Part shown: positions 15,579 through 37,814 of the stretch, piece after piece
How the letters are laid out: the number at the start of each line of letters is the position of its first letter
Position numbering within the stretch: the first letter of the stretch is position 1
Assembly (NCBI RefSeq): GCF_009931435.1
Contig: NZ_CP043414.1
Length of the DNA: 64,000 nucleotides
Source of the DNA: Escherichia coli
Lineage (GTDB): Bacteria; Pseudomonadota; Gammaproteobacteria; Enterobacterales; Enterobacteriaceae
Reading direction: 5' to 3' (one strand)
Made by a program: the position numbers and the translations under genes
The notes under the pieces: generated by a model
The model's database searches: none
What the model was told of the DNA's origin: nothing
The model's input: only the letters and a program-made list of their open reading frames with translations

Positions 15579-16310
15579 ATGAATCAACCAATACACAATG
15601 CTTACTGGTTATCCCGTTTTGAAAGTATTCTCAACAGTGCCCTGGCGCAACACCGTGCCGTCTCGTTAATCCGGGTGGATTTACGTTTCCCTGAGTATAT
15701 GCCTGCCACCATTATGGATACCGATTTAGATTCAGCGGTGATTTCTCGTTTTTTCGAATCCCTGAAAGCAAAAATTCAGGCTTACCAGCGACATAAACGA
15801 CGTGCCAACAAGCGTGTGCATGCAACCACTCTGCGTTATTTCTGGTGCCGGGAGTTCGGCAAGGAAAAAGGCAGGAAACATTATCACGTGATATTACTGC
15901 TCAACAAAGATACCTGGTGCTCGCCAGGGGATTTCACCGTTCCTTCTTCGCTGGCGACGCTGATCCAACTGGCATGGTGCAGTGCTCTGCATCTTGAGCC
16001 CTGGCAGGGTAATGGACTGGTTCATTTTTCCAGGCGGACGCCTTTCCGTAAACCGACATCATCCGATGCTCGCCCTTCTTCCGATGACACGCCTTTACCT
16101 GGTGGATGTTCTGATACCCGGAAGGATTCTGACAAAAAGTCTGGTGGATCCGCTGTGCTCTGGATCAAGCGTGGTGATGTAGAAGCGATGCAGAAAGCCA
16201 TGGAGAGAGCCCGTTATCTCGTGAAGTATGAGACGAAGCAGCATGACGGTTCTGGTCAACGTAATTATGGTTGCAGTCGTGGAGCGGGGCGTCTACTGGA
16301 TGGCAGGTGA
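15579..16310 (+). CDS. inovirus-Gp2-like protein (YagK/YfjJ family)
   Basis: 243 aa. The blocks LIRVDLRFPE...YFWCREFGKEKGRKHYHVILLLNKD are typical of the YagK/YfjJ family as recalled. Confidence 0.7.
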   Translation: MNQPIHNAYWLSRFESILNSALAQHRAVSLIRVDLRFPEYMPATIMDTDLDSAVISRFFESLKAKIQAYQRHKRRANKRVHATTLRYFWCREFGKEKGRKHYHVILLLNKDTWCSPGDFTVPSSLATLIQLAWCSALHLEPWQGNGLVHFSRRTPFRKPTSSDARPSSDDTPLPGGCSDTRKDSDKKSGGSAVLWIKRGDVEAMQKAMERARYLVKYETKQHDGSGQRNYGCSRGAGRLLDGR

Positions 16311-16459
16311 ACCCTGTAAAACGGCATCCGGTGCCTGAGCGTATGCCACGGTAGGGCGTCAGCCAACGCCCTTACCTCGTATTCTGATCACTCATTCTGA
16401 AGTCATGCAACGGTATTTTTATCTGCTTCCGCTCTTGGAAACACTCCGTCGGTAAAAAC

Positions 16460-16500
16460 TTACCGCCTTGATTAATGATGTGAACCGAAGTCAACGGAGG
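16460..16500 (+). repeat. conserved leader motif copy 2
   Basis: ttaccgccttgattaatgatgtgaaccgaagtcaacggagg. It shares the TGATTAATGATGTGAA core and the downstream CAAyGGAG with copy 1. Confidence 0.6.
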
Positions 16501-16693
16501 TCATTCACCTTAAACCCACCTCAGGAATTTTACACCTGTCAGGTCTCCTGACTGTCCTGGCATACGACATCTGCCATCCCCGGTTCCACGGTTATTACAT
16601 CAACAACCTCTGTACACGACGCCTTCAGTTTCACAATACGCTCGTCTTTCGCTGGCGGGGATGCGTCGTGCGTTTCTATATGGAGCATATCTT

Positions 16694-17266
16694 ATGAATG
16701 GTATCCCTCATTTCGACTATAGCCTGGCGCCCTTCTGGCCGTCTTATCAGAACAAAATCATCGGTGTTCTCAACCGTGCGCTGCGTGAACAGTCCTGCTC
16801 CCGGGTACGGCGGATCCTGCTTCGTCTGCCATGTGAATATGACACTACCTTCAGTAGCAGAAAGACCTGGTTTGGTATGGACTTTATCGAAACTGTCAGT
16901 GCGCTGATGAATGCAAACCCCGGACGTGATCTCTGCTGGCTCCTGACTCGTCATCCGGAAAAGCCGGAATACCACGTGGTGCTGTGCGTCAGACAGGAGT
17001 ATTTCGACGGCCCCGAACTGGATCGGTTGATACTGGATGCCTGGAGCAACGTACTGGGCTTCGCGTCACCGGGTGAAGCGGCACCGTACCAGAAGCAGAT
17101 AACACGGGATGTGGTGCTGGACAGTCGTTCACCGGACTGCGAAGACATCCTCAAAGAGCTGATATGGGCATTCAGTGATTTCGCCCGCGATCGTCGTGGT
17201 GTGCGCGATCCGGAAGCCCGTTACCTCGTCGGTAATCCCTGGTATCCCGTAGCAGGCCAGCTCTGA
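16694..17266 (+). CDS. divergent Gp2-like (YfjJ-family) paralogue
   Basis: Start chosen at ATG 16694, which has GGAG 8 nt upstream. ILLRLPCEYD...EYHVVLCVRQEYF is colinear with the RVDLRFPE...HYHVILLL blocks of the 15579 gene. Confidence 0.5.
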   Translation: MNGIPHFDYSLAPFWPSYQNKIIGVLNRALREQSCSRVRRILLRLPCEYDTTFSSRKTWFGMDFIETVSALMNANPGRDLCWLLTRHPEKPEYHVVLCVRQEYFDGPELDRLILDAWSNVLGFASPGEAAPYQKQITRDVVLDSRSPDCEDILKELIWAFSDFARDRRGVRDPEARYLVGNPWYPVAGQL

Positions 17267-17334
17267 AAGCACAGTTCAGCAGATTCACCCGCATTTGCCC
17301 AACCTTCATAAATCTCACAAAGGACATTCTGACC

Positions 17335-17568
17335 ATGTTGACCACAACAAGCCACGACAGCGTATTGCTGCGTGCTGACGATCCCCTGATCGACATGAAC
17401 TACATCACCAGTTTCACCGGTATGACCGATAAATGGTTTTACAAGCTGATCAGTGAAGGCCATTTTCCTAAACCCATCAAACTGGGTCGCAGCAGCCGCT
17501 GGTACAAAAGCGAAGTGGAGCAGTGGATGCAGCAGCGAATCGAGGAGTCACGAGGAGCTGCTGCATGA
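17335..17568 (+). CDS. alpA: AlpA-family phage/island transcriptional regulator
   Basis: 77 aa. The MerR-like HTH ITSFTGMTDKWFYKLISEGHFPKPIKLGRSSRWYKSEVEQWM is the AlpA signature. Confidence 0.8.
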   Translation: MLTTTSHDSVLLRADDPLIDMNYITSFTGMTDKWFYKLISEGHFPKPIKLGRSSRWYKSEVEQWMQQRIEESRGAAA

Positions 17569-17833
17569 AACGTGTTGTAATACCGGTACGCTGGCGATGT
17601 GCAAAATGCCGGCGCTGGTATTGTGGAAATCAGCCCTGTCCCTGGTGCTGGCGACACTCTCGTTCATCTTTCTGCTGATACCCTCCTGTCAGTAGCGGGT
17701 TGTAGCTCTTCCCTGACCGATTTGTCATTCCACTCTTATTGTTTATAACGGGTATTGAGCCGGTACTGGCGTGTTTTCCTGCATGTTTGCACCGGTTCAG
17801 TAAAATTCAACAGGATTCGAAAAGGAACATTTC

Positions 17834-18382
17834 GTGCAAATAACCGAAGCATTACTTTCAGAGCCAGGGGAAATCCGGCGTTTTGTTCAGCAGGCGGTGG
17901 ATCACTGGCCGCATCTGTTGGCATTTCACTTCACGCTCCATTCGGCTGAAGAAAACATCAACGGGCAACGGGTTCAGACATTCTGTACTTCCTTTTACCG
18001 GCAGGTACACGAACGTATTGCTGAACGTAATCACACGGCCAGTCCATCATCGCCGTTGGTATTACGCTGGTTGCGGGAACAACATGGAAAAGCAACAATA
18101 CGATGCCTGTTGCTGCTCAGCCAGACGAGCATTTGCCATCCGCGAGCCAGTGTCACAGTTGATGAACAATGTTCGCAAGTGGTGGATTTACTGCAACATA
18201 GCTGGCAGGTGATAAGTGCTGGCGGACAATGCCGGGTGGAAAGGTGTTTTCGGGTTGCCCGGGGTGATACATCCGGTCAGTATGTTGCGTTAAAAACAGT
18301 CGCATTGTCTCTGGGGTTACCGGTTGTGACCGCCATTACCCATCGTCCGGTACAGCGCTGTACATTGATTACAGCTCAGTGA
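17834..18382 (+). CDS. third Gp2-like (YfjJ-family) paralogue, GTG start
   Basis: 182 aa. LLAFHFTLHSAE...IRCLLLLSQ pattern parallels the other two. Assignment is weak. Confidence 0.4.
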   Translation: MQITEALLSEPGEIRRFVQQAVDHWPHLLAFHFTLHSAEENINGQRVQTFCTSFYRQVHERIAERNHTASPSSPLVLRWLREQHGKATIRCLLLLSQTSICHPRASVTVDEQCSQVVDLLQHSWQVISAGGQCRVERCFRVARGDTSGQYVALKTVALSLGLPVVTAITHRPVQRCTLITAQ

Positions 18383-18383
18383 A

Positions 18384-18725
18384 TCAGCGCTTTCTGGCTT
18401 TTCGTCGGTCATTCAGCACCATTAGCCGGGCCTCTGCCTCTTTCTGTTCCTGTAGTGTCACTTCCCCGCACGGCAGCCCCTTCAGATCGTAACGGGCGCC
18501 ATCTGCCATTAACGCACATGAATAGTGCGGAGACTGCACATAAGACGCCACTGCCGCGTGTAATGTACCAGCGCCAAACGCCAGTTCTCTGATGGCGATA
18601 TCCTGTATCAGGTCGTCAGGTATCTCAACTTTAAGCGGTTGGGGTTTTTCCCGGTTGAATAACTCAGGCCAGAGTTCCACAAGACGATTAATACGCTTAC
18701 GGTTTTTACGCTGGCGTTTTGTCAT
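18384..18725 (-). CDS. ProQ/FinO-domain RNA-binding protein
   Basis: 113 aa. LVELWPELFNREKPQPLKVEIPDDL...YDLKGLPCGEVTLQEQKEAEARL is colinear with the ProQ N-terminal domain (FLAERFPHCF..RPLKIGI..DL...VDLDGNPCGELDEQH) as recalled. Confidence 0.8.
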   Translation of the reverse strand: MTKRQRKNRKRINRLVELWPELFNREKPQPLKVEIPDDLIQDIAIRELAFGAGTLHAAVASYVQSPHYSCALMADGARYDLKGLPCGEVTLQEQKEAEARLMVLNDRRKARKR

Positions 18726-19618
18726 ATGCCGCCACGGTGTTTTTTCAGCAGAGCAGGGCTCTGTTTATCGTTCAACTGTGGTATCCGTTCCCTGGCCTTC
18801 ACGTTGTGTGCAGTGTTCGTTTTATCCTGCAGCGGCGTTGCCGGTGATTTACTGAAAATGCCCTGTGGTTTACGGTTAATGGTCAGCGTTACCATCAGTA
18901 TTGTTACCTCATGCTGTCAATGGAAGTAGTACTCCATCCAGAGCCTTGGCGACCCCGGGGCTGAAAACGAAACAATAACCCGCGCACAGTGCGAGGAGCC
19001 CGGGCGTGAAGCAATCAGCAGGTAATATTAATGGCAAGACCAGTAGGTTCTTTAAACAAACGAACAATATCAGCAAATACGACAACTCCCGGAGAGGTAA
19101 AAAGTTTTTCACTTGAGCACTTCTTAAAAAAATGGAGACGAACAAAAATGGGGCGACATACCTGGAAAGTATTGCTACCAGATGATGCTAAAAAGCAGAA
19201 ATAGTGTTCCAGGCCTGAAAGGGATGAGAATCAGTATCTGTGTGTATTTATAACATCTTCTTGAAGAGGCTGGAGATTGTTAGTCCATTAGTATAATCGA
19301 TATTCGTGTTCCTGCGAATATGCAGGCTACACCAGATATATGATTGCTACCGAATTTCATCAGTTTGATGAAATTACGCATCATACTGCGGGTTTTTCTC
19401 ATTAACATTAACGAAAGTGAATGGACTCAGACAAGTAGTGACCGGCGCAATTTCGCTAAGTATCAAATACAAAGAACGTTCTCTTACTTTCTGCGATGGC
19501 CTTTCCTTCGGAAAGGAAGTGACGATTAAGTACCGAAAAATGTGATACACATATTATTTTTATGGTGAATCACCTGATAGGATTTGCCATAAATGAATGA
19601 AAAGCTGAGTGTTAATAA

Positions 19619-20053
19619 ATGAGTAAGAAGAAAATTCCTTTTGAAAATGAAGAGTTCATTACTTACCGGGCATTACTTCTGAGTATTGACTTTGTTAAAA
19701 AACTGGTTATAGAAATGTCTGATGAAGATTTAAATAAGGTTAAGGAAAACTTTGACATAGCTATTCAGCAACGTAATGAGCGAAAGGAAAATATGAAAGC
19801 TATCAAATCACTCATGGATGAACATGGTATATCTCTGGAAGATTTTTATTGTGAATTTGGCAAAAAATCACAGGCAGGCAGAAAAAGTGTGTCAGGAAGG
19901 CATAAATACGAGTATGACGATAACGGTAAAAGAATGTACTGGAATGGACAAGGACGTCGGCCTAAGGCCATAGCAGAGGCTATAAAAGCCGGAGGTTCTC
20001 TTGATGATTTTCTTATATCTCAGGAAGTATCATCTGGTCCTGATTATGAATAA
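19619..20053 (+). CDS. H-NS-family nucleoid-associated protein (island-borne paralogue)
   Basis: 144 aa. Coiled-coil N-terminus. The C-terminal YWNGQGRRPKAIAEAIKAGGSLDDFLI corresponds to H-NS [28 protein letters not shown]. Confidence 0.85.
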   Translation: MSKKKIPFENEEFITYRALLLSIDFVKKLVIEMSDEDLNKVKENFDIAIQQRNERKENMKAIKSLMDEHGISLEDFYCEFGKKSQAGRKSVSGRHKYEYDDNGKRMYWNGQGRRPKAIAEAIKAGGSLDDFLISQEVSSGPDYE

Positions 20054-21139: not shown

Positions 21140-22393
21140 TTACTTCAGACAGTGAGTTTCCCATTCCTTGACTGCAAATGTATCCATCATACCTGAAATA
21201 TAGTCAACCACTGCTCGTTTTTTGCTGATTTTAAATATATAGGAATCTGGTTGGGGTAAGGTGAATTTAAGTTCAGGAGGCAGAAATTTATAATTCTCTC
21301 CTTCATTGTAAAAGTCATATAAATCCCTGATTATTTTATTTCCCCTGAACTCATAGGTGAGGATATTACGTTTTCGCATGATGACTTTAAAGAGAAGTTT
21401 TTTGAGCCCTTCGGATAACGCATTCAGTTTCCCGAATCCCAGTTCCTGAAAACCATTCAGGTTCGTTACTACAGAAATATCTGCAACGAGGCGATTGACA
21501 ATATTTGAAGTTAACTCCTTGCGGAATATGATGGCAAATTCTTCTGAGGTTTTCAGTAAGTTAGCCTGAAAAGCGGTGTTTCTCGACTGAGTAACGATTT
21601 CCCTGAACTGTTCCCTCGCTCCCCGGAATTCGTCAGAAATCTGAAACTCATATTCAATATCTTCAATCGTGACCATGTTCCTGCTAAGGGCATCTTCCAG
21701 GTCATGCGCGGCATAGGCAATCTCATCCGCGAGATCCATTATCTGCGCATCAATCGTTTTCTCTCCGGGATTCAGATCGAGCTGATTTTCAGCAAGCAGG
21801 TTAATGTAAAAATAGTAATCATCATCATAAATGAACTTGCCGGCAGTAGCTGCAGCGCGGGGGATGGGATACTTAACAACCGAAAGTAAACTACGGTGAG
21901 TCAGATTTAATCCGTTGCAGTATGAAAATTTCTTCTCCAGTTTTCTCAGGATACGTAGCGCCTGTGCATTGCCTTCATAGCCGCCGATTTCTTCAGACAG
22001 TTCATTAAGTAGTTTTTCACCGGAATGACCGAAAGGAGGATTTCCGATGTCATGCGCCAGAGCTGCCAGTTCAACCACCACCGGGTTAACCAGTTTGAGG
22101 TCTGACGCGATACTTCGGGCGATCTGAGCAACCTCAAGACTGTGCGTTAATCTGTTTCTGTTGAATTTTTCAGGATCAATTTCAAAAAGTTGCATCTTTC
22201 CCTGCAGCCTGCGAAATGATGATGAATACAGAATACGCGCATAATCCCGTTGATAATTATCCCGGCTTCTTGTTTCACCATCGGGGGACGGGTGCTCTCT
22301 GGTATCAGCAAGCGCACTGATAAGTTTTTGTTCCTGCTCTTGCGCAAATTCTTTTAATTCATTGCAGTACATATTTCTTCCTTTCTGGAGCAT
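21140..22393 (-). CDS. dGTPase-family HD-domain dNTP triphosphohydrolase (Dgt-like, short form)
   Basis: 417 aa. YQRDYARILYSSSFRRLQGKMQLF...NRLTHSLEVAQIARSIA...LAALAHDIGNPPFGHSGE is the dGTP triphosphohydrolase family signature (H..HD metal site). Confidence 0.9.
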   Translation of the reverse strand: MLQKGRNMYCNELKEFAQEQEQKLISALADTREHPSPDGETRSRDNYQRDYARILYSSSFRRLQGKMQLFEIDPEKFNRNRLTHSLEVAQIARSIASDLKLVNPVVVELAALAHDIGNPPFGHSGEKLLNELSEEIGGYEGNAQALRILRKLEKKFSYCNGLNLTHRSLLSVVKYPIPRAAATAGKFIYDDDYYFYINLLAENQLDLNPGEKTIDAQIMDLADEIAYAAHDLEDALSRNMVTIEDIEYEFQISDEFRGAREQFREIVTQSRNTAFQANLLKTSEEFAIIFRKELTSNIVNRLVADISVVTNLNGFQELGFGKLNALSEGLKKLLFKVIMRKRNILTYEFRGNKIIRDLYDFYNEGENYKFLPPELKFTLPQPDSYIFKISKKRAVVDYISGMMDTFAVKEWETHCLK

Positions 22394-22522
22394 GTTACCA
22401 AATCAGAATACCGGATGAACAAAACTGGTGGCTACATCCTGTAGGGATTATGTATTAGTAAGCTCTGGCCATTAGTGCCATTTCAGGTTATGTGATCCTA
22501 CTCACGTAATATGGACACAGGC

Positions 22523-23389
22523 CTAAGTGAGGTTCTGGTTTTCAAATTGTTCCGGACTGAGGCCGCCACACCAACTGTGCCGCCGCCACCGATTGTAATC
22601 ACATTCGATATAATTAAACACCGTTGCCCGCATTATTTCCCGGCTGATAAAGTGTTCTCCATGGATACATTCCACTTTCAGCGAATGAAAGAAGCTTTCC
22701 ACGCAGGCATTATCGTAGCAGCAACCTTTTGCGCTCATACTTCCACGCAGATTATGCCGCTTCAGTTGCGCCTGATAATCTGCTGAACAGTACTGGCCTC
22801 CACGGTCCGTGTGAACGATAACGTTCCGGGGCCTCTTACGCCGCCACAGCGCCATCTGCAGGGCATCGCAGGCCAGTTGCGCCGTCATGCGTGGCGACAT
22901 TGACCAGCCAATAACGGCACGTGACCACAGGTCAATGACCACTGCCAGATACAGCCAGCCTTCATCTGTACGTAAGTACGTGATGTCTCCTGCCCACTTC
23001 TGGTTCGGGCCACTGGCGTAAAAATCCTGCTCCAACAGATTTTCTGACACAGGCAGGCCGTGTGCGCGGTAGCTGACCGGGCTGAACTTCCGGGAGGCCT
23101 TTGCCCTCAGTCCCTGACGGAGCAGGCTTGCCGCCACGGTTTTTACGTTAAAGGGGTAACCCTGAGCACGCAGTTCATCCGTCAGGCGTGGGGCACCGTA
23201 ACGCTGTTTTGACCGGGTAAAAGCCGCGAGGACAACGCTGTCGCAGTGTTGGCGGAACTGCTGACGCGTGCTTATCCTTGTCCGCCGCTGACACCACGTA
23301 TACCAGCCGCTGCGGGCCACCCGGAGCACGCGGCACATTGCTTTGATGCTGAACTCAGCCTGATGTTTTTCAATAAAGACATACTTCAT
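22523..23389 (-). CDS. insF: IS3 transposase OrfB (InsF), DDE domain
   Basis: 288 aa, [32 protein letters not shown]..., near-identical to IS3 InsF as recalled. Confidence 0.95.
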
Positions 23390-23684
23390 TTCAGACGATT
23401 CGCAAAGTATGTCGCGGCCTTTTGGAGGATAGCCAGTTCCTCTGCCTGCTCCGCCAGTTGCCGCTTCAGGCGGGCATTTTCAGCGGCCAGTTCACTTTCA
23501 CGATCTGACGAACTCATTTGTTGCTGCAGTTTGCTGCGCCACGCATAGAGCTGTGATTCATACAGGCTGAGTTCACGGGCTGCGGCAGCAACACCGATGC
23601 GTTCAGCAAGTTTCAGGGCTTCACTGAGAAATTCAGGCGAATGCTGTTTACGGGGTTTTTACTGGTTGATACTGTTTTTGTCAT
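23386..23684 (-). pseudogene. insE: IS3 orfA (insE) with a 1-nt deletion in an A-run
   Basis: ATG at 23684 reads MTKTVSTSKNPVNSIRLNFSVKP then stop. Shifting one base after AGTAAAAA restores KPRKQHSPEF...[15 protein letters not shown] ending at 23386. The span is 299 nt, not a multiple of 3. The ORF track shows no 60-aa or longer minus-strand ORF here. Confidence 0.8.
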
Positions 23685-23851
23685 GTGAGTCACCTCTGAC
23701 TGAGAGTTTACTCACTTAGCCGCGTGTCCACTATTGCTGGGTAAGATCAAGTCTTACTTACCCTGTGAACCATGTTGATATTGATACTATATTGACTATA
23801 TGCCATACAGGTGGTAATGATTAGTTACTACCATACAGGAAAAGGTAGAAA

Positions 23852-24832
23852 ATGACTCTTTTGGTAACGGCTGAGTGTGTTGACGATCTGATAAACGATG
23901 TTCATCAAGCTATCCTAGCGGATGGACTCAGTAACGATCCTACAAAAGGATCAACTCTAGAGATTCTTGGTGCCTATCTTGTCCTTACCGACCCCCGCCG
24001 AAGAATAAGTAGAACAGAATCCCGAGGAAAACTAATTAGTTGCTTAGGTGAATTTCTGTGGTATCTCTCAGCTCAGAACGATCTTGAGTTTATAAAACAC
24101 TTCATACCACGTTACGCTGAATCCGCTGAGTCAGATGGGAAAATACATGGTGGTTACGGGCCACGGTTGTTTAATATGCGTGGTTTATATAATCAGCTAA
24201 AAAATGTCATCAACCTTTTGCAGGAGAAAAAACCTACCAGACGTGCAGTAATACAGCTTTTCGATGCCTCAGACTTGGTGCCCTCAAAAACTGAACAGCG
24301 AGAATACGTAGATATTCCTTGTACAATATCTATGCAGTTTATTGTCAGATGTGAAGAGCTGCATCTATTTGTTTGTATGCGTTCTAACGATGCCTTTATG
24401 GGGCTGCCTCATGATGTATTTGCGTTCACGATGCTACAGGAATTAGTTGCCCGCTTGATAGGATGCGAATTGGGTCACTATCATCACTTTGTATCCAGCC
24501 TACATCTCTATAAAAATGATTTAGAAAAAGTGAAGGCTCTTCAGAAAGAGGGGTTCATGAGCACCCTACCAGTCATGGGATCGATGCCTGAAATGCATTC
24601 CTTAGATGATATCTTACCCCTGCTTGAGGCAGAAAAAGCTCTTCGAGAGAATAAGGAATTTGATATTGACACTACTTCCTTGAATGACTACTGGAAGGAT
24701 TTATTGCGTATATTAAAAATCCACTTTTTGTTACGTTCACATACACCCAACCACAAAGGACTAGCCTTCCAAGAGTTGGCTGCAATGAAAAATCAGGAAT
24801 ATCGGTTTATTTTTGAAGGAAGACTACAATGA
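23852..24832 (+). CDS. thymidylate-synthase-fold pyrimidine-C5 transferase homologue (Asp at the ThyA Asn177 position)
   Basis: 326 aa. Ungapped match to the ThyA core as recalled: IPCTISMQF/APCHAFFQF, MRSNDAFMGLPHDVFAF/QRSCDVFLGLPFNIASY, LHLYKN/THLYSN, GEFLWYL/HELLWFL. Confidence 0.8.
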   Translation: MTLLVTAECVDDLINDVHQAILADGLSNDPTKGSTLEILGAYLVLTDPRRRISRTESRGKLISCLGEFLWYLSAQNDLEFIKHFIPRYAESAESDGKIHGGYGPRLFNMRGLYNQLKNVINLLQEKKPTRRAVIQLFDASDLVPSKTEQREYVDIPCTISMQFIVRCEELHLFVCMRSNDAFMGLPHDVFAFTMLQELVARLIGCELGHYHHFVSSLHLYKNDLEKVKALQKEGFMSTLPVMGSMPEMHSLDDILPLLEAEKALRENKEFDIDTTSLNDYWKDLLRILKIHFLLRSHTPNHKGLAFQELAAMKNQEYRFIFEGRLQ

Positions 24833-25773
24833 AAAGACATAATCAAATCAGTCAGCTGGTTAGTAATTTGCAAAATTTTAGCCGCAATGAACACAACCTA
24901 AATGGTCTAAGTTCTCCTGCCTGCTTTGATGTTTTAGCCTGTCAGATTATCGACAGTATACGTCGTATACGCTATGTGGAAACTCTTGCATTACGGACCG
25001 ATTATATGACTCCGTTACGAAAAGAGCCGAATTCTGATGTTTTTGATCCTCTCCGCGCTGCCTGCCTTTATCTTCGTGACAACAATTACGATGAAGCCTG
25101 CTGGCTGGTTTTCCTTGCCACACATTTCGGCAAGAGTAACAAAACCGGCTGGATTTTGTGTCGAGATATATACAGTGGACTCGGTACACAAACGTGGACA
25201 TGGGATACGATAACTGATGACTTTGCTGCTTTTGAACAATGGTTCGCCAGCGTCTCTGATGAGTTGACAGCTAACAGTAGCCTAAGACAATATGGTAACC
25301 ATCGGAAATATGAAACGAAGAAATATCACTCTCGTCGTTCAATACCTGCGGTTTTTCGCTCTTACATCGGATTCATTGGTGCTACACACAGTCATGAGGC
25401 TAGGTTTGCAGAGGCCAAGAGCTTTTCATCTTCACCAGAATCTTTATTCGAACTATTGTATTCAGGGCTAAATGCCGTGATCTCATTTGGACGAACCGCA
25501 AAATTTGATTACCTAACTATGCTCAAGAAAACGGGACTTCTGGATGTAGAGCCGGGTCATGCTTTTCTGAATGGAGCAACCGGGCCCCTTCAAGGAAGCC
25601 GGCTACTTTTCAGCAATAGCCGGACTGCTGGTGACACAATAGACGTATTGAATGAAAAACTAGCTGACCTTGCGGCAATTATTCCTGCACCCTACTTGAG
25701 AATGCAGGTTATTGAAGATGCGTTGTGCAACTGGCAGAAATCACCTGACCGTTATGTCTATTTCGGCGGCTGA
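24829..25773 (+). CDS. hypothetical protein translationally coupled to the TS-fold gene
   Basis: 314-aa ORF whose ATG overlaps the upstream stop (ATGA at 24829-24832). No motif assignable by eye. Confidence 0.6.
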   Translation: MKRHNQISQLVSNLQNFSRNEHNLNGLSSPACFDVLACQIIDSIRRIRYVETLALRTDYMTPLRKEPNSDVFDPLRAACLYLRDNNYDEACWLVFLATHFGKSNKTGWILCRDIYSGLGTQTWTWDTITDDFAAFEQWFASVSDELTANSSLRQYGNHRKYETKKYHSRRSIPAVFRSYIGFIGATHSHEARFAEAKSFSSSPESLFELLYSGLNAVISFGRTAKFDYLTMLKKTGLLDVEPGHAFLNGATGPLQGSRLLFSNSRTAGDTIDVLNEKLADLAAIIPAPYLRMQVIEDALCNWQKSPDRYVYFGG

Positions 25774-25775
25774 TA

Positions 25776-26858
25776 TCAGACGATATCTTCTTTACGGAAT
25801 CTCACTTTAAACCGATTAAGGTGAGAAAAAGGTATATTACCTTCATGCTGCAAATATCCCAGTACGATCCCTTTGGATACCCCCATTTTCCTAGCTAACC
25901 GGATGATCTCTTTCCAATGCCGGACACCATAGCGACTAAGTTGCTGCCGGTATTCTTCTGGGATAAGAACATCAACGGCAAATTTATCTGCTTCCTTTTC
26001 CTCTTCCGACGAAAGACTATCTTTACCTTCTACGCGAACTCGGACAGCTTCATGCAAGATGAGATGCCCAATCTCATGAAACAGCGTAAACCAAAAATGG
26101 TCATCGGTCAGATAACGGAAACTCATGACTAGGGTTGCGCGATCTGGTGTAAAAAAGCAGGTAGCACCACTTGCCCGACATCCCTTTGGCGTTGGCAACA
26201 CAACGAGAGAAACTCCAGCAGTGGCGAGAAGGTCGCGAATGTAAGGGATAAAAATCCTCATGTCGGGTTCATTTGTAGCTTTGCGCAGTTCTGGCAACAA
26301 TGCTATCAGCACCTCTTTATCCCATACAGCACAGTTTTGGTTTGAGGTAAGTTGTGCAGCCCTAGTCAGCCACACCAAATCGGCCATAGGCTCGGTTGCC
26401 AGATTAAGAGATTTACGAAAAGCGACCAAAGGAGCATCTGACTGAATTTTATAAAAAAAATCATTGACGGAATTTATTCCGAAAAACGATAGGCAGTGCT
26501 GGAATTTACTTTCCCGAGTTGTAGTTTTGGGGATCCAACCAAACTCCATCATATCACGTACAGGCAATGATTCGAGCCAATCATTATTCACTTTCTCGAG
26601 GTATCCAATTTGCTGGCGATAAGCGACTTCGCGCTTGATCCAGAAGTCTGTCGATACGTTGAATAACTCCTCAAGCTTACAAGCCAGAGACTCATTGAGT
26701 CGGATTTTTCCTTCAAGAAGTTGCTGACCCCGGATAAGAGACAATCCAATCCTCTTACTCAGTTCTTCACCAGAAAGCCCATGTTCATCCATTAGATCTA
26801 TAATTGTATCACCGGGTGGAGATACCCAGTCAGGCTGGAAGTCCTGCGTAACTATCAT
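25776..26858 (-). CDS. XRE-type HTH fused to an ImmA/IrrE-family zinc metallopeptidase
   Basis: 360 aa. N-terminal HTH (LSGEELSKRIGLSLIRGQQLLEG) and C-terminal HExxH (LFHEIGHLILHE). Confidence 0.8.
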   Translation of the reverse strand: MIVTQDFQPDWVSPPGDTIIDLMDEHGLSGEELSKRIGLSLIRGQQLLEGKIRLNESLACKLEELFNVSTDFWIKREVAYRQQIGYLEKVNNDWLESLPVRDMMEFGWIPKTTTRESKFQHCLSFFGINSVNDFFYKIQSDAPLVAFRKSLNLATEPMADLVWLTRAAQLTSNQNCAVWDKEVLIALLPELRKATNEPDMRIFIPYIRDLLATAGVSLVVLPTPKGCRASGATCFFTPDRATLVMSFRYLTDDHFWFTLFHEIGHLILHEAVRVRVEGKDSLSSEEEKEADKFAVDVLIPEEYRQQLSRYGVRHWKEIIRLARKMGVSKGIVLGYLQHEGNIPFSHLNRFKVRFRKEDIV

Positions 26859-27181
26859 TTCACGTCACCTATGAACACTAACCGTATCCGGCTAACTCGG
26901 GACCAGTTAATTGTATTATCTTGATTTTTGGGCTGAACTGTATTCCCACAGACAAATCCCATTTTTACATCACCGAGAATGGTAATTGTAATACACTCTT
27001 CCCCATCCTCAAAGCAGACCTCCGGCGAACCTACGGGCAACAGTAAAATGTTGTCTGTCACGGAAAGATCGGAAAGTCGCGAGCGTAGTCTTGATGCCAC
27101 TTTGTCACCAAAGATCTCATTTGCCTCATGCATACTCTCGCAAATAGTCCTTAACTTCTTGCTTTGAAAGGTAATGAACAA
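26855..27181 (-). CDS. small putative toxin (HigB/killer-protein-like N-terminus) upstream of the HTH-ImmA gene
   Basis: 108-aa ORF overlapping the downstream gene by 4 bp. MFITFQSKKLRTICES resembles the start of HigB-type killer proteins, but the C-terminal family motif is not evident. Confidence 0.4.
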   Translation of the reverse strand: MFITFQSKKLRTICESMHEANEIFGDKVASRLRSRLSDLSVTDNILLLPVGSPEVCFEDGEECITITILGDVKMGFVCGNTVQPKNQDNTINWSRVSRIRLVFIGDVK

Positions 27182-27324
27182 AATTATCCACTTTTATTTT
27201 TCTTGGTTGCTACGTTTATAGCAAACTCAACGCTCATTCACAAAATGAGATGTAGCGAATTAATGGACTCTGCACATATTAAATGTTAATGATGGACTTA
27301 AAATCACGGATTCGTAAGGGAAAC

Positions 27325-27588
27325 ATGAAAGGTAAACATCAAGACACTAAAGCCCTGTCTGACGTGCTAGCGGAAATGCAACGGCAGGATGCCAAATGGG
27401 GGGCAGACCGTAATCAAGATCCTTTTATCTGGGGAGCGATTCTCGGAGAAGAGGTGGGAGAATTTCATCAGGCTGTCCTCCATGATCGTTTTGGTGGTAA
27501 AGCAGCCGGTACCAGTAGGGAGGAAGCAGTACAAATTGCTGCTGTTGCACTGCAAATCATCGAATATTATGATCGCGTAATAGATTGA
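27325..27588 (+). CDS. MazG-like all-alpha NTP pyrophosphohydrolase (small form)
   Basis: ATG at 27325 preceded by AAGGGA. KWG....W..ILGEEVGEFHQAV...EEAVQIAAVALQIIEY fits the MazG-type EExxE metal motif and helical pattern. Confidence 0.6.
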   Translation: MKGKHQDTKALSDVLAEMQRQDAKWGADRNQDPFIWGAILGEEVGEFHQAVLHDRFGGKAAGTSREEAVQIAAVALQIIEYYDRVID

Positions 27589-27862
27589 TAAATTAGAATT
27601 AATCAACTAAGAGTCTTTTACACGCGAAGATGAACTCTGGCAGCCATCTACCTTCGTGGGCCTGTAGAACACATCTAATTGCAATACTCCCAGTTAATCA
27701 CTAACCAGCCTCTCCAGTAAGGCTGGTCGATTAGGTTTAATTAAACAGATATAACAAGCAATTCACTTGGTATTACGCGGTTCACACAGACTTCTTTAGT
27801 TGTGTCATATCCTATAACTTTCAGAGGCTTATTTACGGTATTATCACGAACGGTGCAAAAGT

Positions 27863-28710: not shown

Positions 28711-29012
28711 GATTAATGCATTGAAACAAAATTCATTAATGATGAACTTGGAGAAAAGCTCCATCGTTTTATTGGCTCAAAAAACATATCCCATAGATGA
28801 TCAGCCATACCTTCATTGGTTAGCAAGGTATCCTGTGAGTAGCCATGGCTGAAGATGCCCATTGATGGGCGAAAACCAAGGATCTGACCGTTAGAGCAGT
28901 TATGTCGTTAAACACATCACCACCATATGCCATCCGGCTCACTTCGTCGGCCAAATTAGTGTGATATTCTTTCCAGAAATGCTGTTGTATCCACGACATA
29001 AGGCGATGATTG

Positions 29013-32000
29013 ATGGAGCAGTCTCTCAATTTTGAAATGTTGCGCAGCCAGTGGCCGGAACTGGCTGAACTCGCGTGTATGGCGGAACGCTATGTTCACT
29101 CCGATCCGGAAAGTTGTCTGGTCAAGCTGCGCAACTACACTGAATTGATGGTGCGCTGGTTGTATCGTCAGGAGCGGTTGCCGGAAGGTATTAAGGCTAA
29201 TCTTTACGATTTAATGAATGCTGATGTCTTTACCAGCATGATGCCGGAAGCCATCATCATGAAAATGGATGCGCTGCGTATCCATGGCAACCGTGCCGCG
29301 CACGGCGGACGTATCAAAGCTAAAGATACTTACTGGCTGCTCAAAGAAGCGTATTTGTTGGGAATTTGGCTGTATGTTCGCTACGCCCACGGTAATGTTG
29401 ATGACTGCCCCAAATTTACACTCCCTCCATTAACACAATCTTCAGGTCGTGCAGATGAAAAACGTCTGGAAGATGCAATCAGGGCTCAGGATGAAAGCCG
29501 TGAGCGCGAACTGGCGCTGCAACGCGCACTACAGCAAGAACAGGAAAAGGCCGAACACCTCACTCAACGCCTGAATGAAGCCAGAGCGCGTAACCAGCAT
29601 GTTGCCGATATTCTCTCTATTGATGAAGCGGAAACCCGCCGTCGCCTGATTGACTCTCGCCTGCTTGCTGCTGACTGGAATGTAGGCGAAGGCCTTAAAA
29701 ATACCGATCAGGTTACGCAGGAACATCCCGTTAAAGAACAACCTACCGCGACCGGAGACGGTTATGCGGACTATGTCTTGTGGGATGAGGCACACAAACC
29801 GCTGGCGGTGGTGGAAGCAAAAAAAACCAGCGTCAATGCCGAGCAAGGACGAATTCAGGCCCGGCTGTATGCAGACTGGCTGGAAAAAGAATACGGCCAG
29901 CGTCCGATCATCTTCTACACCAACGGCTATGATATCTGGCTGTGGGATGACCATAAAACTCATGGTTATCCCCCGCGTCGGGTGTTTGGCTTCTACAGCA
30001 AGGAAAGCCTGCAATATCTTATTCAACAGCGTGAAACCCGTCTTCCGCTGAACAGTGTGCCGTACGTAAAAGATAACGAAGGTAAGGCCGTTGCCGGACG
30101 TTTGTACCAGCTTGAAACCATTGCCCGTGTCAGCGAGCGGTTTACCAACAAATACCGGCAATCGCTAATTGTTCAGGCTACGGGTACAGGCAAAACCCGC
30201 GTGGCAATAGCGCTAAGCAAACTGATGATTGATGCCCGCTGGGTAAAACGCGTCCTGTTTCTTTGCGACCGCAAGGAACTACGTAAACAGGCGGCGAATG
30301 CCTTTAATCAATTCACCAATGAGCCGCTGTATGTGGTCGGGAAATCGAAAAAAGCAGACAGGCAGAATGCTAGGATCTACATCGCCACCTATCCTGGTAT
30401 GATGAAAATCATGGACCATTTCGATGTTGGTTATTTCGATTTGATCATCGCCGATGAATCCCATCGCTCTATCTACAACGTTTACGGCGATCTGTTTAAG
30501 TATTTTGATGCCCTCCAGATTGGCCTGACGGCCACGCCGATTGACATGGTGAGTAAAACCACTTTCGGCCTGTTTGGTTGTGAAGGACGTATTCCTACCG
30601 CCAACTACAGCCTGGAAGATGCCATCGCCGATAACAATCTGGTTCCCTATGAGGTTGTCACGCACACCACAGAATTCCTGCGCGAAGGCATCAAACGGGA
30701 GAAATTAAGCGACGCACAAATCCGCGAGCTGGAAGAACAAGGCATAGATCCCAATACGCTGGAGTTTGATGGCAAGGCGCTGGATGAGGCGATCTACAAC
30801 AAAGACACCAACCGCTATATCCTGCGTAACCTGATGGAAAATGGCCTGAAAGATCGGGACGGCCAGTTGCCAGGTAAAACCATCATTTTCGCCCGTAACC
30901 ACAAACACGCGCTGCTGTTGAATGAATTATTCGACGATATGTACCCGCAGTTTGCCGGGCGCTTCTGCCAGGTCATCGACAATTACGATCCCCGCGCCGA
31001 GCAACTGATTGATGATTTTAAAGGGCTGGATGAAAGCACCAACAAAGAGCTGACCATCGCTATCTCCGTTGACATGCTCGATACCGGTATTGATGTCCCG
31101 GAAATTGTGAATCTGGTCTTTGCCAAACCGGTCAAATCAAAAGTGAAGTTCTGGCAGATGATTGGCCGTGGTACGCGCCTCTGTCCGGGGTTGTACGGTT
31201 ACGACGATAACGGCAAACCTCTGGATAAACAGAAATTCCGCATTTTCGATCACTGGGGCAATTTTGAGTATCACGAACTGCATACCGAAGAGGCCGAAGT
31301 CACAGCGACAAAATCGCTTGCACAAAAACGCTTCGAAGCGTGGGTTATGCTGGGGGCCGCTGCGCAACGTAAATTCGACAAACAGGCGGTGGATTTAGTT
31401 GCTCACCAGCTACGCGAGCAAATCAATGCACTGGATGAAAAGTCGATTGCCGTCCAGGAAAAGTGGCATCAAAAAGCGCAGTACAGCGATGAAAAAGTGC
31501 TGCGCCAGCTTTCCCCGAAAACACAGCAGGATTTGCTATCTGTCCTGGCCCCGCTGATGCAGTGGCTGGACGTGCGCGGGCAAAGCGACGCTATGCGCTT
31601 TGATATGGATATTCTGGCGGCGCAAACTGCCCGTTATACCAACCCGGAAGAGCTGGATGTGCTCTGGCCGGTCATCGTCGAAAAAGTGGAGCGCCTGCCG
31701 CCGCATTTGGCGCAAGTCCAACAGCAAGGACCGCGGATCAATCAGCTTCGTGATTTAGGCTGGTGGAAGCAGGCCAGCCTGGAAGAGCTGGAAGATATCC
31801 GCATTCATCTGCGCGGCATCATGCACCTGATGGAAAAAGACGCGACGCCGAAATTTGGTTCGATACAGGTGGATATTACCGAAGATGCGAACCTGATTCA
31901 GACGGAAAACCGCAAAACCAACATCCGCTCGATTGACTTCAAACTCTATCGCCAGCAGGTGCAGGGAGCGCTGGAGCCGCTGTTCCAGCAAAATCCGGTG

Positions 32001-32426
32001 CTGAAGAAAATCCGCAACGGCGAGCCTGTGACGCAAAGCGAGCTGGATGAACTGGCTAAACTGGTGCTGATCCAGAACCCTAACGTTGATATCCGGGCAC
32101 TGAAAGAGTTCTACCCGCAGGCGACCGCCAGCCTGGATAAACTATTGCGTACCATCATCGGGATGGACAGCGACGCGGTGGAAGTGCGCTTTGCTCAGTT
32201 CGCCGCTGATAACAGCCTGACCAGCCAGCAATTGCGCTTCCTGTCATTGCTGAAAAACCACATTCGCGATTACGGCACCATTGAAATGCGGCAGCTCTTT
32301 GAACAGCCTTTTACGCATATCCACAACGAAGGCGTTACCGGTGTGTTCCCTGATATAGAGCAGATCGCCCGCCTACAAAAGATAGTCGAAGAGCTGGGTG
32401 TTGTGACCGACGCAGCAACGGTATAA
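29013..32426 (+). CDS. hsdR: type I restriction enzyme R subunit (HsdR) with a DUF4145-like N-terminal domain
   Basis: ATG at 29013 (the ORF track starts at TTG 29010). PD-(D/E)xK GYADYVLWDE...VVEAKK. SF2 helicase motifs QATGTGKT and DESH. EcoEI-type C-terminal domain. Confidence 0.9.
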   Translation: MEQSLNFEMLRSQWPELAELACMAERYVHSDPESCLVKLRNYTELMVRWLYRQERLPEGIKANLYDLMNADVFTSMMPEAIIMKMDALRIHGNRAAHGGRIKAKDTYWLLKEAYLLGIWLYVRYAHGNVDDCPKFTLPPLTQSSGRADEKRLEDAIRAQDESRERELALQRALQQEQEKAEHLTQRLNEARARNQHVADILSIDEAETRRRLIDSRLLAADWNVGEGLKNTDQVTQEHPVKEQPTATGDGYADYVLWDEAHKPLAVVEAKKTSVNAEQGRIQARLYADWLEKEYGQRPIIFYTNGYDIWLWDDHKTHGYPPRRVFGFYSKESLQYLIQQRETRLPLNSVPYVKDNEGKAVAGRLYQLETIARVSERFTNKYRQSLIVQATGTGKTRVAIALSKLMIDARWVKRVLFLCDRKELRKQAANAFNQFTNEPLYVVGKSKKADRQNARIYIATYPGMMKIMDHFDVGYFDLIIADESHRSIYNVYGDLFKYFDALQIGLTATPIDMVSKTTFGLFGCEGRIPTANYSLEDAIADNNLVPYEVVTHTTEFLREGIKREKLSDAQIRELEEQGIDPNTLEFDGKALDEAIYNKDTNRYILRNLMENGLKDRDGQLPGKTIIFARNHKHALLLNELFDDMYPQFAGRFCQVIDNYDPRAEQLIDDFKGLDESTNKELTIAISVDMLDTGIDVPEIVNLVFAKPVKSKVKFWQMIGRGTRLCPGLYGYDDNGKPLDKQKFRIFDHWGNFEYHELHTEEAEVTATKSLAQKRFEAWVMLGAAAQRKFDKQAVDLVAHQLREQINALDEKSIAVQEKWHQKAQYSDEKVLRQLSPKTQQDLLSVLAPLMQWLDVRGQSDAMRFDMDILAAQTARYTNPEELDVLWPVIVEKVERLPPHLAQVQQQGPRINQLRDLGWWKQASLEELEDIRIHLRGIMHLMEKDATPKFGSIQVDITEDANLIQTENRKTNIRSIDFKLYRQQVQGALEPLFQQNPVLKKIRNGEPVTQSELDELAKLVLIQNPNVDIRALKEFYPQATASLDKLLRTIIGMDSDAVEVRFAQFAADNSLTSQQLRFLSLLKNHIRDYGTIEMRQLFEQPFTHIHNEGVTGVFPDIEQIARLQKIVEELGVVTDAATV

Positions 32427-32438
32427 TACGCACATGAC

Positions 32439-32465
32439 AAGCCCCGGCAGCGGGGCTTTTGTATT
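32439..32465 (+). terminator. rho-independent terminator after hsdR
   Basis: aaGCCCCGgcagCGGGGCtttt: GC-rich 6-8 bp stem, 4-nt loop and a T-run, 13 bp after the hsdR stop. Confidence 0.7.
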
Positions 32466-32489
32466 TAAAACAGGATATAAAAGCTAACA

Positions 32490-34124
32490 ATGATCACTGG
32501 TGACTTAAAAAGTAAAATCGACGGCCTGTGGGAAGATTTCTGGGTGGGTGGTATCACCAACCCGCTGACCGTAATCGAACAGATCACCTATCTAATGTAT
32601 TCCCGGATGCTGGATACTCAGGAACAACGCGACGAGAAGCGTAAACAAATCGCGGGTATTGATTTTAAACCGCGTTTTGCACCAGAACAGCAGGAGTTCC
32701 GTTTCAGTCACTATAGCAATCTTGGCTCGGATGAGATGATGGAAGTGGTGCGCGATGGTGTATTCCAGCATTTTCGTCAGCTCGGCCAGGCTGATGCGTC
32801 GAAGGTAACGCTGCTGGGCAACTTTATGAAAGATGCCCGTCTGGAGATTGTTAAGCCTTCATTGCTGACCAAAGCGGTTGAGGTGATCAAAAACCTGCCA
32901 TTGGATCGCGGCGACACCAAAGGCGACCTTTACGAATACCTGTTAAGCAAGCTGACCACTGCCGGAATCAACGGCCAGTTTCGCACACCGCGCCACATTA
33001 TCCGCACGATGGTTGAAATGATGGAGCCGAACCCCGCCCGCGGCGAGACGATTTGCGATCCGGCCTGCGGCACCGGTGGCTTTCTGGCAACCAGCTATGA
33101 ATATCTACTGGAGAAGTACAGCTCGCTGGAATCCATTCATACCGAGATTGGCACCAACGAACGTGGTGAGCTGGAAGAGCAAAAAATCTTTACCGGCGAT
33201 CTGTTGACCCCGTGGCGTAACCATGTGGATAACAATATGTTCCACGGTTACGACTTTGACACCACAATGTTACGTATCGCCGCCATGAACCTGATTATGC
33301 ACGGCGTGGAAGCGCCGGATATCCACTATCAGGACACCATGAGCCAGAGCTTCAGCACAAACTTCCCGCAGGCCAGTAAAAACGCTTTCAACCTGATTCT
33401 GGCAAACCCGCCGTTTACCGGTTCACTGGACGAAGAAGATATCGACTCCACGCTGTCGGCAATGGTGAAAACCAAAAAAACCGAACTACTGTTCCTGGCG
33501 CGTATTCTGCAAATGCTGAAAGTGGGCGGGCGCAGTGCCACTATCGTGCCGCAGGGCGTGCTGTTTGGCTCCAGTAAGGCGCACCAGTCACTTCGCAAAA
33601 CGCTGGTGGAAGATAACCAACTGGAAGCGGTGATCAACCTGCCTTCCGGCGTATTTAAACCTTACGCTGGCGTGGCGACGGCGATCCTGATCTTTACCAA
33701 AGGCGGTCAGACGGACGAGGTCTGGTTCTACGATCTGCAAAATGATGGCTACAGCCTGGATGACAAGCGTAACCCAATTAAAGACAACGACCTGCCGCAT
33801 CTGCTGGCAAGCTGGAAGCATTACCGTACTTTACGCGGGCTGCCGGTTGATAACTTTATGGGTGAGAAATTAGCCTCGTTGCTTAAACAGCAGCACCCGG
33901 AAGGGATTGATGTTGGCGTTGATTTTAAAGATCGCACGCAGGCGGCGTTTGTAGTTCCAAAAGAAGATATTGCTGCGCAGAAATACGATCTCTCTATTAA
34001 TCGTTATAACGAAGTGGTGTATCAGGCGGAGGAGTATGAAGATCCGAAGGTGATACTGAAACGATTAAAAGATCTGGAAAAAGAGATTCTGGCGGATCTG
34101 GATGAGCTGGAGGGGATGCTGTGA
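32490..34124 (+). CDS. hsdM: type I R-M N6-adenine DNA methyltransferase (HsdM)
   Basis: 544 aa. AdoMet motif DPACGTGGF and catalytic NPPF ([10 protein letters not shown]). Confidence 0.9.
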
Positions 34125-36918: not shown

Positions 36919-37814
36919 TGTTCTACGAATGCGCCATTTCACCAGAGGCTTTGTTTGAGATCGCAATTGATCGGAGAAATTATCGTGACTTCATAAAAGG
37001 ATTTTCTACGGGCGGTAACTTTCTCTATAGTGAATTACCAAAGCTGAAGAGAAATAAAAAACAATTGCTTGGGCTATTAAATGCTAATCATAGTGAACTT
37101 CAAAAAAAACGATTAGAGGACCTTATTATTTTTTTGAAAAATAATAAGGTTAGTAGGGTTTATGATTATGTTGGTGACATGTCATGGTCAGATAACATCT
37201 CTGCTGTAAATCGAATTGAACAATTTGATCATGTAGTGAGTTCTACTCCTTGTGATAACCTTGATGTAACTAATATAGATGATTTCTTTGGGTTAAATTA
37301 TGCTCGGCAAAAAATTGTTGCTAGAATTGCTGAGGATATGATATCTATAATCTCACGCTTATTAAAAACATCAGAGCATATTATTATAGTTGACCCATAC
37401 TTTAGTGACAAACAAAGATGGTGGAATGTATTTATTTCATTACTTAGCGTTAGTGCTAATAACTCTTATAAAAAAAATTTAAAGATAGATGTTATATTTG
37501 ATGGGAGTAAAGAAAACTCCCCAACGGTGAATTATTTGGCTAATAAGTTGAACCGCGAAAACCTTGTCTTTCCAGACGATTTTAAATTATCAGTAACATT
37601 TAAGTCTTTAACTTCTCGCGAGGGTAATGAACGTCTGCATAATAGATATGTTCTTTCTAATGTTGCTGGAGTTTGTTTCATGCATGGTTTAGATGAGGGA
37701 GAAGGAACGGATGATGTCTCAATTTTGTCGAAAGAGGGATATAATAAAAGATGGGAACATTACACTACGAATAATGTTTTTGATTTAATAGAAGAGCGTG
37801 AAGTTATATGTTAA
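36918..37814 (+). CDS. hypothetical partner of the ATPase (possible PLD-fold-like C-terminal module)
   Basis: ATG at 36918 overlaps the ATPase stop (TAATG). 298 aa. C-terminal pattern IIIVDPYF ... LHNRYVLSN..G..FMHGLDEG. No Toprim, HNH or HEPN motif seen. Confidence 0.55.
   Translation: MFYECAISPEALFEIAIDRRNYRDFIKGFSTGGNFLYSELPKLKRNKKQLLGLLNANHSELQKKRLEDLIIFLKNNKVSRVYDYVGDMSWSDNISAVNRIEQFDHVVSSTPCDNLDVTNIDDFFGLNYARQKIVARIAEDMISIISRLLKTSEHIIIVDPYFSDKQRWWNVFISLLSVSANNSYKKNLKIDVIFDGSKENSPTVNYLANKLNRENLVFPDDFKLSVTFKSLTSREGNERLHNRYVLSNVAGVCFMHGLDEGEGTDDVSILSKEGYNKRWEHYTTNNVFDLIEEREVIC

Follow-up and report, generated by a model that had tools for sequence, protein, structure and literature searches.

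What is an enzyme of the thymidylate synthase (TS) fold doing in a defense island of Escherichia coli, where its gene overlaps that of a 314-aa protein? The question arises from a 64,000-nt stretch of E. coli DNA (NZ_CP043414.1, assembly GCF_009931435.1), referred to here as the window, in which a sequence-only reading had singled out the two genes as a pair. We found that the pair is not autonomous and that the unit is a mobile four-gene cassette (approximately 23751 to 27600), which includes a pair related to a validated abortive-infection system and is probably a phage defense. The genes of the cassette and their upstream region are as follows.

23751-23851, plus strand: conserved region upstream of the TS-AG operon, with a promoter-like site and an inverted repeat.
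23852-24832, plus strand: ORF1 (TS), a TS-fold enzyme of 326 aa, labeled 'thymidylate synthase' in RefSeq (WP_000174035.1); predicted dCMP C5-hydroxymethylase.
24829-25773, plus strand: ORF2 (AG), an aGPT-Pplase clade 3 protein of 314 aa that resembles amino-acid:DNA transferases (AADTs); RefSeq WP_000820616.1.
25776-26858, minus strand: IMM, a HigA-like helix-turn-helix (HTH) domain fused to an ImmA/IrrE (M78) metallopeptidase; RefSeq WP_000637420.1.
26855-27181, minus strand: SM, a small protein of 108 aa with a modeled RelE/HigB fold, a TTG start, and a 4-nt overlap with the IMM gene.

The extent of the unit emerges from a comparison of 102 loci (23 from IMG/VR and 79 from species-representative genomes), in which open reading frames (ORFs) were called and the neighbors clustered. 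Of the 98 loci with room upstream, 97 have a co-oriented TS gene 5′ of AG, either directly adjacent to it (66 loci) or approximately 800 bp away (31 loci). Only two further families are near-universal, IMM (∼360 aa; 100/102 loci) and SM (∼110 aa; 82 loci); both are on the opposite strand and converge on AG, giving the order TS> (MID>) AG> IMM< SM<, which is also seen in independent public gene calls. The 'toxin/ImmA module' previously listed as a neighbor does adjoin the pair, but it is conserved along with TS and AG as part of the cassette and is not a separate module. Cassettes are present in at least 10 phyla: Proteobacteria (Alpha-, Beta-, and Gammaproteobacteria), Myxococcota, Acidobacteriota, Planctomycetota, Verrucomicrobiota, Bacteroidota, Actinomycetota, Chloroflexota, Gemmatimonadota, and Saccharibacteria. 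Two loci have unusual arrangements. A locus of Chryseolinea serpens (L085) is the sole one with ample upstream DNA and no TS, with the order MID-AG-IMM-SM and no remnant detectable by tblastn, and in Enterobacter hormaechei (L033) the AG gene is apparently interrupted by about two inserted ORFs (AG>.>.> AG>).

ORF1 is a member of the TS family (Pfam Thymidylat_synt PF00303, E = 5e-25) and aligns without gaps to the core of bacterial ThyA from the Cys loop to LHLY, with all of the motifs quoted for it in the sequence-only reading. That reading was also correct that ORF1 is not the housekeeping thyA product; this identity is ruled out by a score of 81.4 bits against NCBIfam ThyA equivalog cut-offs of at least 327, and by Asp188 and Asp154 at the positions of ThyA Asn177 and Leu143, respectively. 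The best solved relative is MilA (5b6d/5jnh; E = 1.6e-41, 34.6% identity, residues 26 to 304), the CMP 5-hydroxymethylase of mildiomycin biosynthesis, and ThyA proteins match ORF1 at E = 1e-18 or weaker. The C-terminal extension recognized previously is homologous to that of MilA, with the alignment reaching residue 304. We read the marker residues of ORF1 against published determinants (from the MilA paper and the 5-hydroxycytosine/5hodC paper) and counted their conservation over 88 distinct partner TS proteins of other loci.

Nucleophile (reference Cys): Cys157, in 88/88.
Catalytic acid (reference Glu): Glu67, in 85 to 88 of 88.
Cytosine selection (ThyA N177, MilA D186): Asp188, in 88/88.
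Water access (ThyA L143): Asp154, the hydroxymethylase state; Asp or Glu in 82/88.
Deoxyribose versus ribose (MilA Lys133): Arg130; Arg in 85/88.
Deoxyribose versus ribose (MilA Ala176): Ser178; Ser in 88/88.
Sugar contacts (His/Tyr): His218 and Tyr220, in 85 to 88 of 88.

Arg131, Arg177, and Asp180 are further key residues. In ThyA, Asn177 selects uracil, and the hydrophobic Leu143 excludes water to give a methyl product. The proposed Asn-to-Asp switch is evident in the alignment, where Asp188 faces the Asn of the ThyA motif 'vpfNiasy'. A MilA A176S/K133R double mutant prefers dCMP, and Arg130 and Ser178 represent the same state in ORF1. Judged by these residues, ORF1 is catalytically intact and has the specificity determinants of a dCMP (cytosine, deoxyribose) C5-hydroxymethylase; we predict that it turns dCMP into 5-hydroxymethyl-dCMP (hm-dCMP) because it combines the cytosine Asp with an acidic residue in place of ThyA Leu143 and with both sugar-selecting residues in the deoxyribose state. 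The likeness to a T4-type dCMP hydroxymethylase suggested earlier holds for the cytosine Asp and the deoxy-state residues, but the closest characterized relative is MilA and not T4 gp42. Both enzymes share with ORF1 the TS fold, the Cys nucleophile, the cytosine Asp, and the acidic residue at the L143 position. MilA differs in its ribose-selecting Lys133/Ala176, which are Arg/Ser in ORF1, and the cassette has no MilB-like partner; T4 gp42 is phage-encoded and accompanied by a gp1-type kinase and glucosyltransferases, whereas the ORF1 cassette is neither phage-encoded nor provided with these.

ORF2 had been thought to contain no assignable motif, which proves incorrect: it matches PF18746 (aGPT-Pplase3) with E = 4.8e-90 and 302 bits (cut-off, 25), in agreement with the clade-3 relation suspected at the same time. 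It also matches PF18724 (amino-acid:DNA transferase; 199 bits, E = 9e-59). The aGPT-Pplase clade 3 family includes 3,903 clusters (E ≤ 1e-5), nearly all of 305 to 325 aa, and invariant features of the ORF2 family are Glu89, GNHRKY (156 to 161), an FGR..FD hairpin (220 to 227), TGP (251 to 253), and a C-terminal block, Q293-x2-E296-D297-x2-C300-N301-W302-Q303-K304. The phage transferase PUGT (gp46) needs an essential Cys247 with a nearby Glu243, and in a profile alignment ORF2 MQVIEDALCNWQK faces gp46 IQEVETILCKWKS, which pairs E296 with the published Glu243 and C300 with Cys247. The two residues are invariant in 20/20 sequences and in register with gp46 'EVETILCKW', in an alignment with a weak hhalign score and a single-sequence template. 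ORF2 is therefore best described as a putative enzyme with the Glu/Cys catalytic pair of AADTs retained. Its fold is all-alpha and HhH-glycosylase-like, which is the fold of the superfamily; the AG family profile has no match among PDB sequences even at E = 10, and the link to PUGT among PDB structures is by fold comparison only.

Could the pair have come from a phage? A tblastn search with ORF2 against 50,697 phage genomes gives no match, and the top viral predicted structure (BFVD) has a TM-score of approximately 0.45, so the clade is distinct and bacterial; the lack of phage matches also weakens the previous idea of a captured phage anti-restriction module. The 3.85-kb module (23751-27600) has no megablast match among 72,556 plasmids, and on these two results we rejected a phage-borne hypermodification module. 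Around the nominally 'viral' IMG/VR loci, integrases, helicases, and primases predominate, and the 25 most frequent neighbor families listed include no structural genes. The characterized phage AADTs (PaMx11 gp46/PUGT, M6 gp51, and ViI gp247) belong to clade 2 and have a partner TS of the uracil type (Asn), in contrast to the bacterial, clade 3 ORF2 with its cytosine-type (Asp) partner; ORF2 also lacks the 5-hydroxymethyldeoxyuridine (5-hmdU) DNA kinase with which members of the superfamily act on 5-phosphomethyl-dU in DNA, and the 102 neighborhoods contain no recurrent kinase family.

The TS and AG genes share an ATGA stop/start overlap, as reported earlier (junction, CAATGAAA), and ORF2 is predicted to be translationally coupled to the TS gene. 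A promoter scan places a putative site at 23792-23821 (TTGACT, 18 nt, AATGAT), with an inverted repeat, GTAA-n7-TTAC, spanning its −10 element. The 101 bp 5′ of the TS gene are kept in Kluyvera, Yokenella, Enterobacter, and Citrobacter, and the homology stops precisely at the IS3 end (23750). A recurring GGTAATGA was considered as a shared operator and rejected, since it sits within the SM coding start.

The convergent genes connect the cassette to a known system. IMM has an N-terminal Pfam HTH_3 domain and a C-terminal Peptidase_M78 domain, and matches the HigA model TIGR02607 weakly; among PADLOC models the match to PD-Lambda-2_B (E = 3.3e-30, residues 14 to 340) is ahead of those to capP (1.8e-10), RmrA, and Lit. 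The motif HExxHLxLH (H261, E262, H265, H269) is kept in at least 90% of 90 sequences. Public gene calls show TS-(MID)-AG beside each of three distant IMM homologs (38 to 42% identity), and this peptidase subfamily appears to be tied to the cassette. SM has no sequence match in Pfam, PDB, NCBIfam, or PADLOC (including the PD-Lambda-2_A model), and its likeness to HigB is one of predicted fold. We note that the SM ORF is unannotated in both of the RefSeq E. coli records inspected, even though homologs are as widespread as described above (82/102 loci).

PD-lambda-2 (Vassallo et al. 2022) has been validated in E. coli as an abortive-infection system, in which A is HigB-like, B is a HigA-HTH/peptidase fusion that is toxic alone and neutralized by A, and C is needed for defense. 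The cassette similarly has a small gene, for a protein of modeled HigB fold, followed by a HigA-HTH/ImmA-peptidase fusion, and both are found in E. coli accessory islands. They differ in that PD-lambda-2 has C, which is P4-antitoxin-like, whereas the cassette lacks it and has the convergent, strictly linked TS and aGPT-Pplase3 genes instead; moreover, the PD-Lambda-2_A model does not detect SM, for all its modeled HigB fold. The CapH/CapP and ImmR/ImmA pairs, regulators that respond to DNA damage, also combine an M78/ImmA metallopeptidase with an XRE HTH near defense genes, but in IMM the HTH and peptidase are fused, the partner has a predicted HigB fold, and the match to PD-lambda-2_B is far stronger.

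Taking the cassette as a whole, the best explanation, which we hold tentatively at a little short of even confidence, is an abortive-infection-type anti-phage cassette with a PD-lambda-2-like core and a TS-AG enzymatic arm that corrupts or starves the phage deoxycytidine (dC) supply. A role in defense is argued for by the validated abortive-infection activity of PD-lambda-2 A/B, in which, as apparently in the cassette, a HigB-like protein is paired with a HigA-peptidase, and also by machine-learning predictions. In DefensePredictor (Science 2026), WP_000174035.1 appears in Table S10 (the 3,000-strain table) as a 'predicted novel defense gene' with log-odds of 7.63, and aGPT-Pplase systems are highlighted as predicted defenses. 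The same study validated DS-4 'NTTI' in E. coli, which consists of a TS, a dNMP kinase, a 5-hmdU DNA kinase, TIR, and NMAD. Genomic context points in the same direction: the cassette is at the selC (tRNA-Sec) island between a dGTPase gene and a type I restriction-modification (R-M) system with an AAA_15 ATPase, its GC content is 42.9% (compared to 49.8% for the window), and it is intact in only 231/5426 complete E. coli genomes (4.3%), always on the chromosome. The TS-AG pair is 99 to 100% identical in 232/5426 of these. Neighbors in other genomes are highly variable, with integrases and scattered defense genes.

DS-4 resembles the cassette as a bacterial defense unit built around a TS-family enzyme with phage-type hypermodification chemistry, the defense role of the cassette being a predicted one. 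Its TS shares 29% identity with ORF1 and has Asn at the position of Asp188; judged by this residue, the DS-4 enzyme is uracil-directed and part of a different system. DS-4 also has kinases and TIR but no aGPT-Pplase, whereas the cassette has an aGPT-Pplase and none of the kinase, TIR, and NMAD components. No other description of the cassette was found in the literature searched, which left out the papers defining the aGPT-Pplase clades. The cassette is thus partly anticipated by the 2026 machine-learning prediction and the PD-lambda-2 work, yet uncharacterized.

How might such a cassette work? SM and IMM would form the PD-lambda-2-like core, acting as toxin and neutralizer or as trigger, and the TS-AG pair would be an enzymatic arm in place of the third PD-lambda-2 component. 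The TS would turn dCMP into hm-dCMP; in some lineages, accessory dNTP pyrophosphatases (MazG-like or Nudix) might supply the dCMP. Cys300 of AG, with Glu296, may then attack C6 of 5-hydroxymethylcytosine (5hmC), so that the hydroxymethyl group is replaced or trapped and the dC supply for phage DNA synthesis would be corrupted or starved. We lean toward AG acting on 5hmC already in replicating DNA to give a bulky adduct or covalent block, because the enzymes most closely related to it work on DNA and its HhH-like hairpin does not vary. Almost equally likely is an irreversible dC sink in which AG acts on the free nucleotide, in view of the lack of a dNMP kinase, the dNTP pyrophosphatases among the accessory genes, and the precedent set for this fold by QNG1. 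The most specific version, an immune cassette that uses phage-style hypermodification through an infection-controlled dCMP hydroxymethylase and a kinase-independent clade-3 transferase that traps 5hmC, on a PD-lambda-2-type switch, is attractive but rather doubtful.

Several observations weigh against the abortive-infection explanation or parts of it. The cassette has neither the 5-hydroxymethyl kinase required by all characterized AADTs nor a dNMP kinase to move hm-dCMP toward DNA. The product of ORF1 is uncertain from its sequence alone, because RB69 gp48 and DLP3 gp80, which are likewise MilA-like and have the cytosine Asp and the acidic residue of ORF1, are flavin-dependent 5-hydroxy-dCMP synthases. 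The RelE/HigB fold of SM comes from a structure model and is confident in one of five AlphaFold2 models, and none of the TS, AG, and SM proteins has a matching PADLOC model. The cassette is outside the units screened by DefensePredictor, where Table S6 contains 'thymidylate synthase' once, for DS-4, and the defense genes near cassettes come from a crude PADLOC tally. Between the TS-upstream and SM-upstream regions we found no common operator that would show regulation of the TS operon by IMM, the longest common words averaging 8.1, compared to 8.2 for shuffled sequences.

Other explanations share parts of this evidence. The cassette could act purely by pool depletion, with TS (fed by MazG or Nudix conversion of dCTP to dCMP) and AG forming an irreversible dC sink, AG working on free hm-dCMP (for instance as a transferase or N-glycosidase), and DNA left unmodified. 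The outcome would be analogous to dCTP-deaminase and dGTPase defenses, but we consider it unlikely given that the nearest structural relative of AG acts on DNA (PMC11472151) and the HhH-like FGRT hairpin is invariant; hydroxymethylation is also needlessly elaborate for removing dCMP, which is off the main de novo route to dCTP. Constitutive self-modification, in which a 5hmC-derived base in host or element DNA serves as an epigenetic or anti-restriction mark and the HigB/HigA-peptidase pair is for addiction or regulation only, seems improbable. All characterized AG relatives do build protective DNA hypermodifications, the cassette travels on integrative elements, and in E. coli it adjoins a type I R-M system. 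Yet genome-wide replacement of C would demand a dedicated dNTP pathway, and the cassette has no kinase, dNMP kinase, or polymerase partner; no restriction partner is conserved over the 102 loci, and the absence of ORF2 from the phage genomes and of the module from the plasmids searched is at odds with such a mark.

The strict coevolution of the peptidase subfamily with TS-AG could instead reflect sensing, with TS-AG binding or converting phage 5-hydroxymethyl-pyrimidine nucleotides or modified DNA and so freeing the toxic peptidase from its HigB-like inhibitor. PD-lambda-2 defense likewise needs a third, non-neutralizing component, and the peptidase resembles Lit, a triggered abortive-infection protease. 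However, full catalytic sets in both enzymes over all phyla imply turnover rather than mere binding, and an hm-dCMP synthase is not needed to sense hm-dCMP. For many of the host phyla, moreover, phages with hydroxymethylated cytosine or uracil are not known, and sensing is in our view distinctly improbable. Least credible is a small-molecule pathway as in MilA/MilB and BcmA/BcmB, with free 5-hydroxymethylcytosine or a derivative as antimetabolite or signal. MilA is the closest solved homolog of ORF1, C-terminal extension included, and the AG fold is of the glycosylase type, but the ribose-selecting Lys133/Ala176 of MilA/BcmA are replaced by Arg/Ser in 85 to 88 of 88 members, methyltransferase, kinase, and other tailoring genes are not conserved, and linkage to a toxin-antitoxin-like pair is atypical of biosynthetic clusters. 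A MilA/BcmA-type antibiotic pathway was rejected on the ribose markers and the absence of tailoring genes.

If the cassette does defend against phages as proposed, it would join TS-family hydroxymethylases, phage DNA-hypermodifying transferases, and PD-lambda-2-type abortive infection, which have so far been studied apart. The aGPT-Pplase clade 3 (approximately 3,900 sequence clusters in many phyla) would also receive its first assigned activity, and the AADT superfamily its first transferase shown to act on a cytosine derivative. A kinase-independent enzyme that derivatizes 5hmC, if that is what AG is, may have practical interest for 5hmC labeling. The cassette is directly testable, being small (3.85 kb), native to E. 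coli, and clear in its catalytic residues.

Accessory genes vary among the loci. MID, a highly conserved protein of ∼270 aa encoded between TS and AG in 30 loci (∼30%; among them L009, L013, L039 to L042, L049 to L052, L058, and L059), is absent from the window. It has no match in Pfam, NCBIfam, PADLOC, or PDB sequences, and its invariant motifs are GLNPS, HLD..P.AT, LNG, and NHN.QSS; we suspect a uracil-DNA glycosylase-like fold from GLNPS and NHNIQSS. DUF4031 (10 loci, eight of which also have MID) and Nudix (5 loci) genes were identified by hidden Markov models (HMMs). A possible second MazG-like family, c8 (7 loci), has a weak match to a MazG-type pyrophosphatase (E = 0.19), and no homology is detectable between it and the small protein c5, which is the accessory gene in the window.

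27325-27588, plus strand: c5, labeled 'MazG-like family protein' in RefSeq (WP_000676590.1), divergent from the SM gene.

The c5 family is present in 10 to 11 loci, all in Enterobacterales; its MazG label has no HMM or PDB support, and its EEVGE motif was seen by eye only.

The sequence-only reading had placed the pair among IS3, dGTPase, and type I R-M genes in a defense island. The positions are confirmed, and the setting is a mobile island at selC that is rich in defense genes.

21140-22393, minus strand: dGTPase-family defense gene, intact, 417 aa (PADLOC, E = 1e-109).
22523-23389, with its end at 23750: IS3, the left flank of the cassette.
29010-35287: type I R-M system, the right flank.
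35296-37814, plus strand: AAA_15/DUF3696 ATPase, 540 aa, directly after hsdS, with an overlapping 313-aa ORF; best PADLOC matches of the ATPase PDC-M55A, NsnB, and AriA-like.

The right flank also includes an ISL3 fragment and the AAA_15 ATPase system. The 313-aa ORF that overlaps the ATPase gene has no PADLOC match, and the two look like a second candidate two-gene defense unit after the type I R-M system. The type I HsdR (29010-32426, plus strand) has an N-terminal DUF4145 in addition to HSDR_N, ResIII, and EcoEI_R_C. The dGTPase gene is annotated as frameshifted by RefSeq in strain 4FM (L001). The IS3 copy (22493-23750) abuts the left boundary of the cassette exactly, and loci L104 and L105 show two further states of the site. 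In FORC_028, the cassette is missing beside the same IS3 and the last ∼200 bp (27394-27600) are left; in strain B1-56, it is replaced by a region with ISKpn26, ISVsa5, and tet(B). Further to the left, 15579-20053 contains CP4-like/selC cargo, including YagK/YfjJ ('inovirus Gp2 family'), a ProQ/FinO-like protein that is frameshifted in some strains, and an H-NS paralog.

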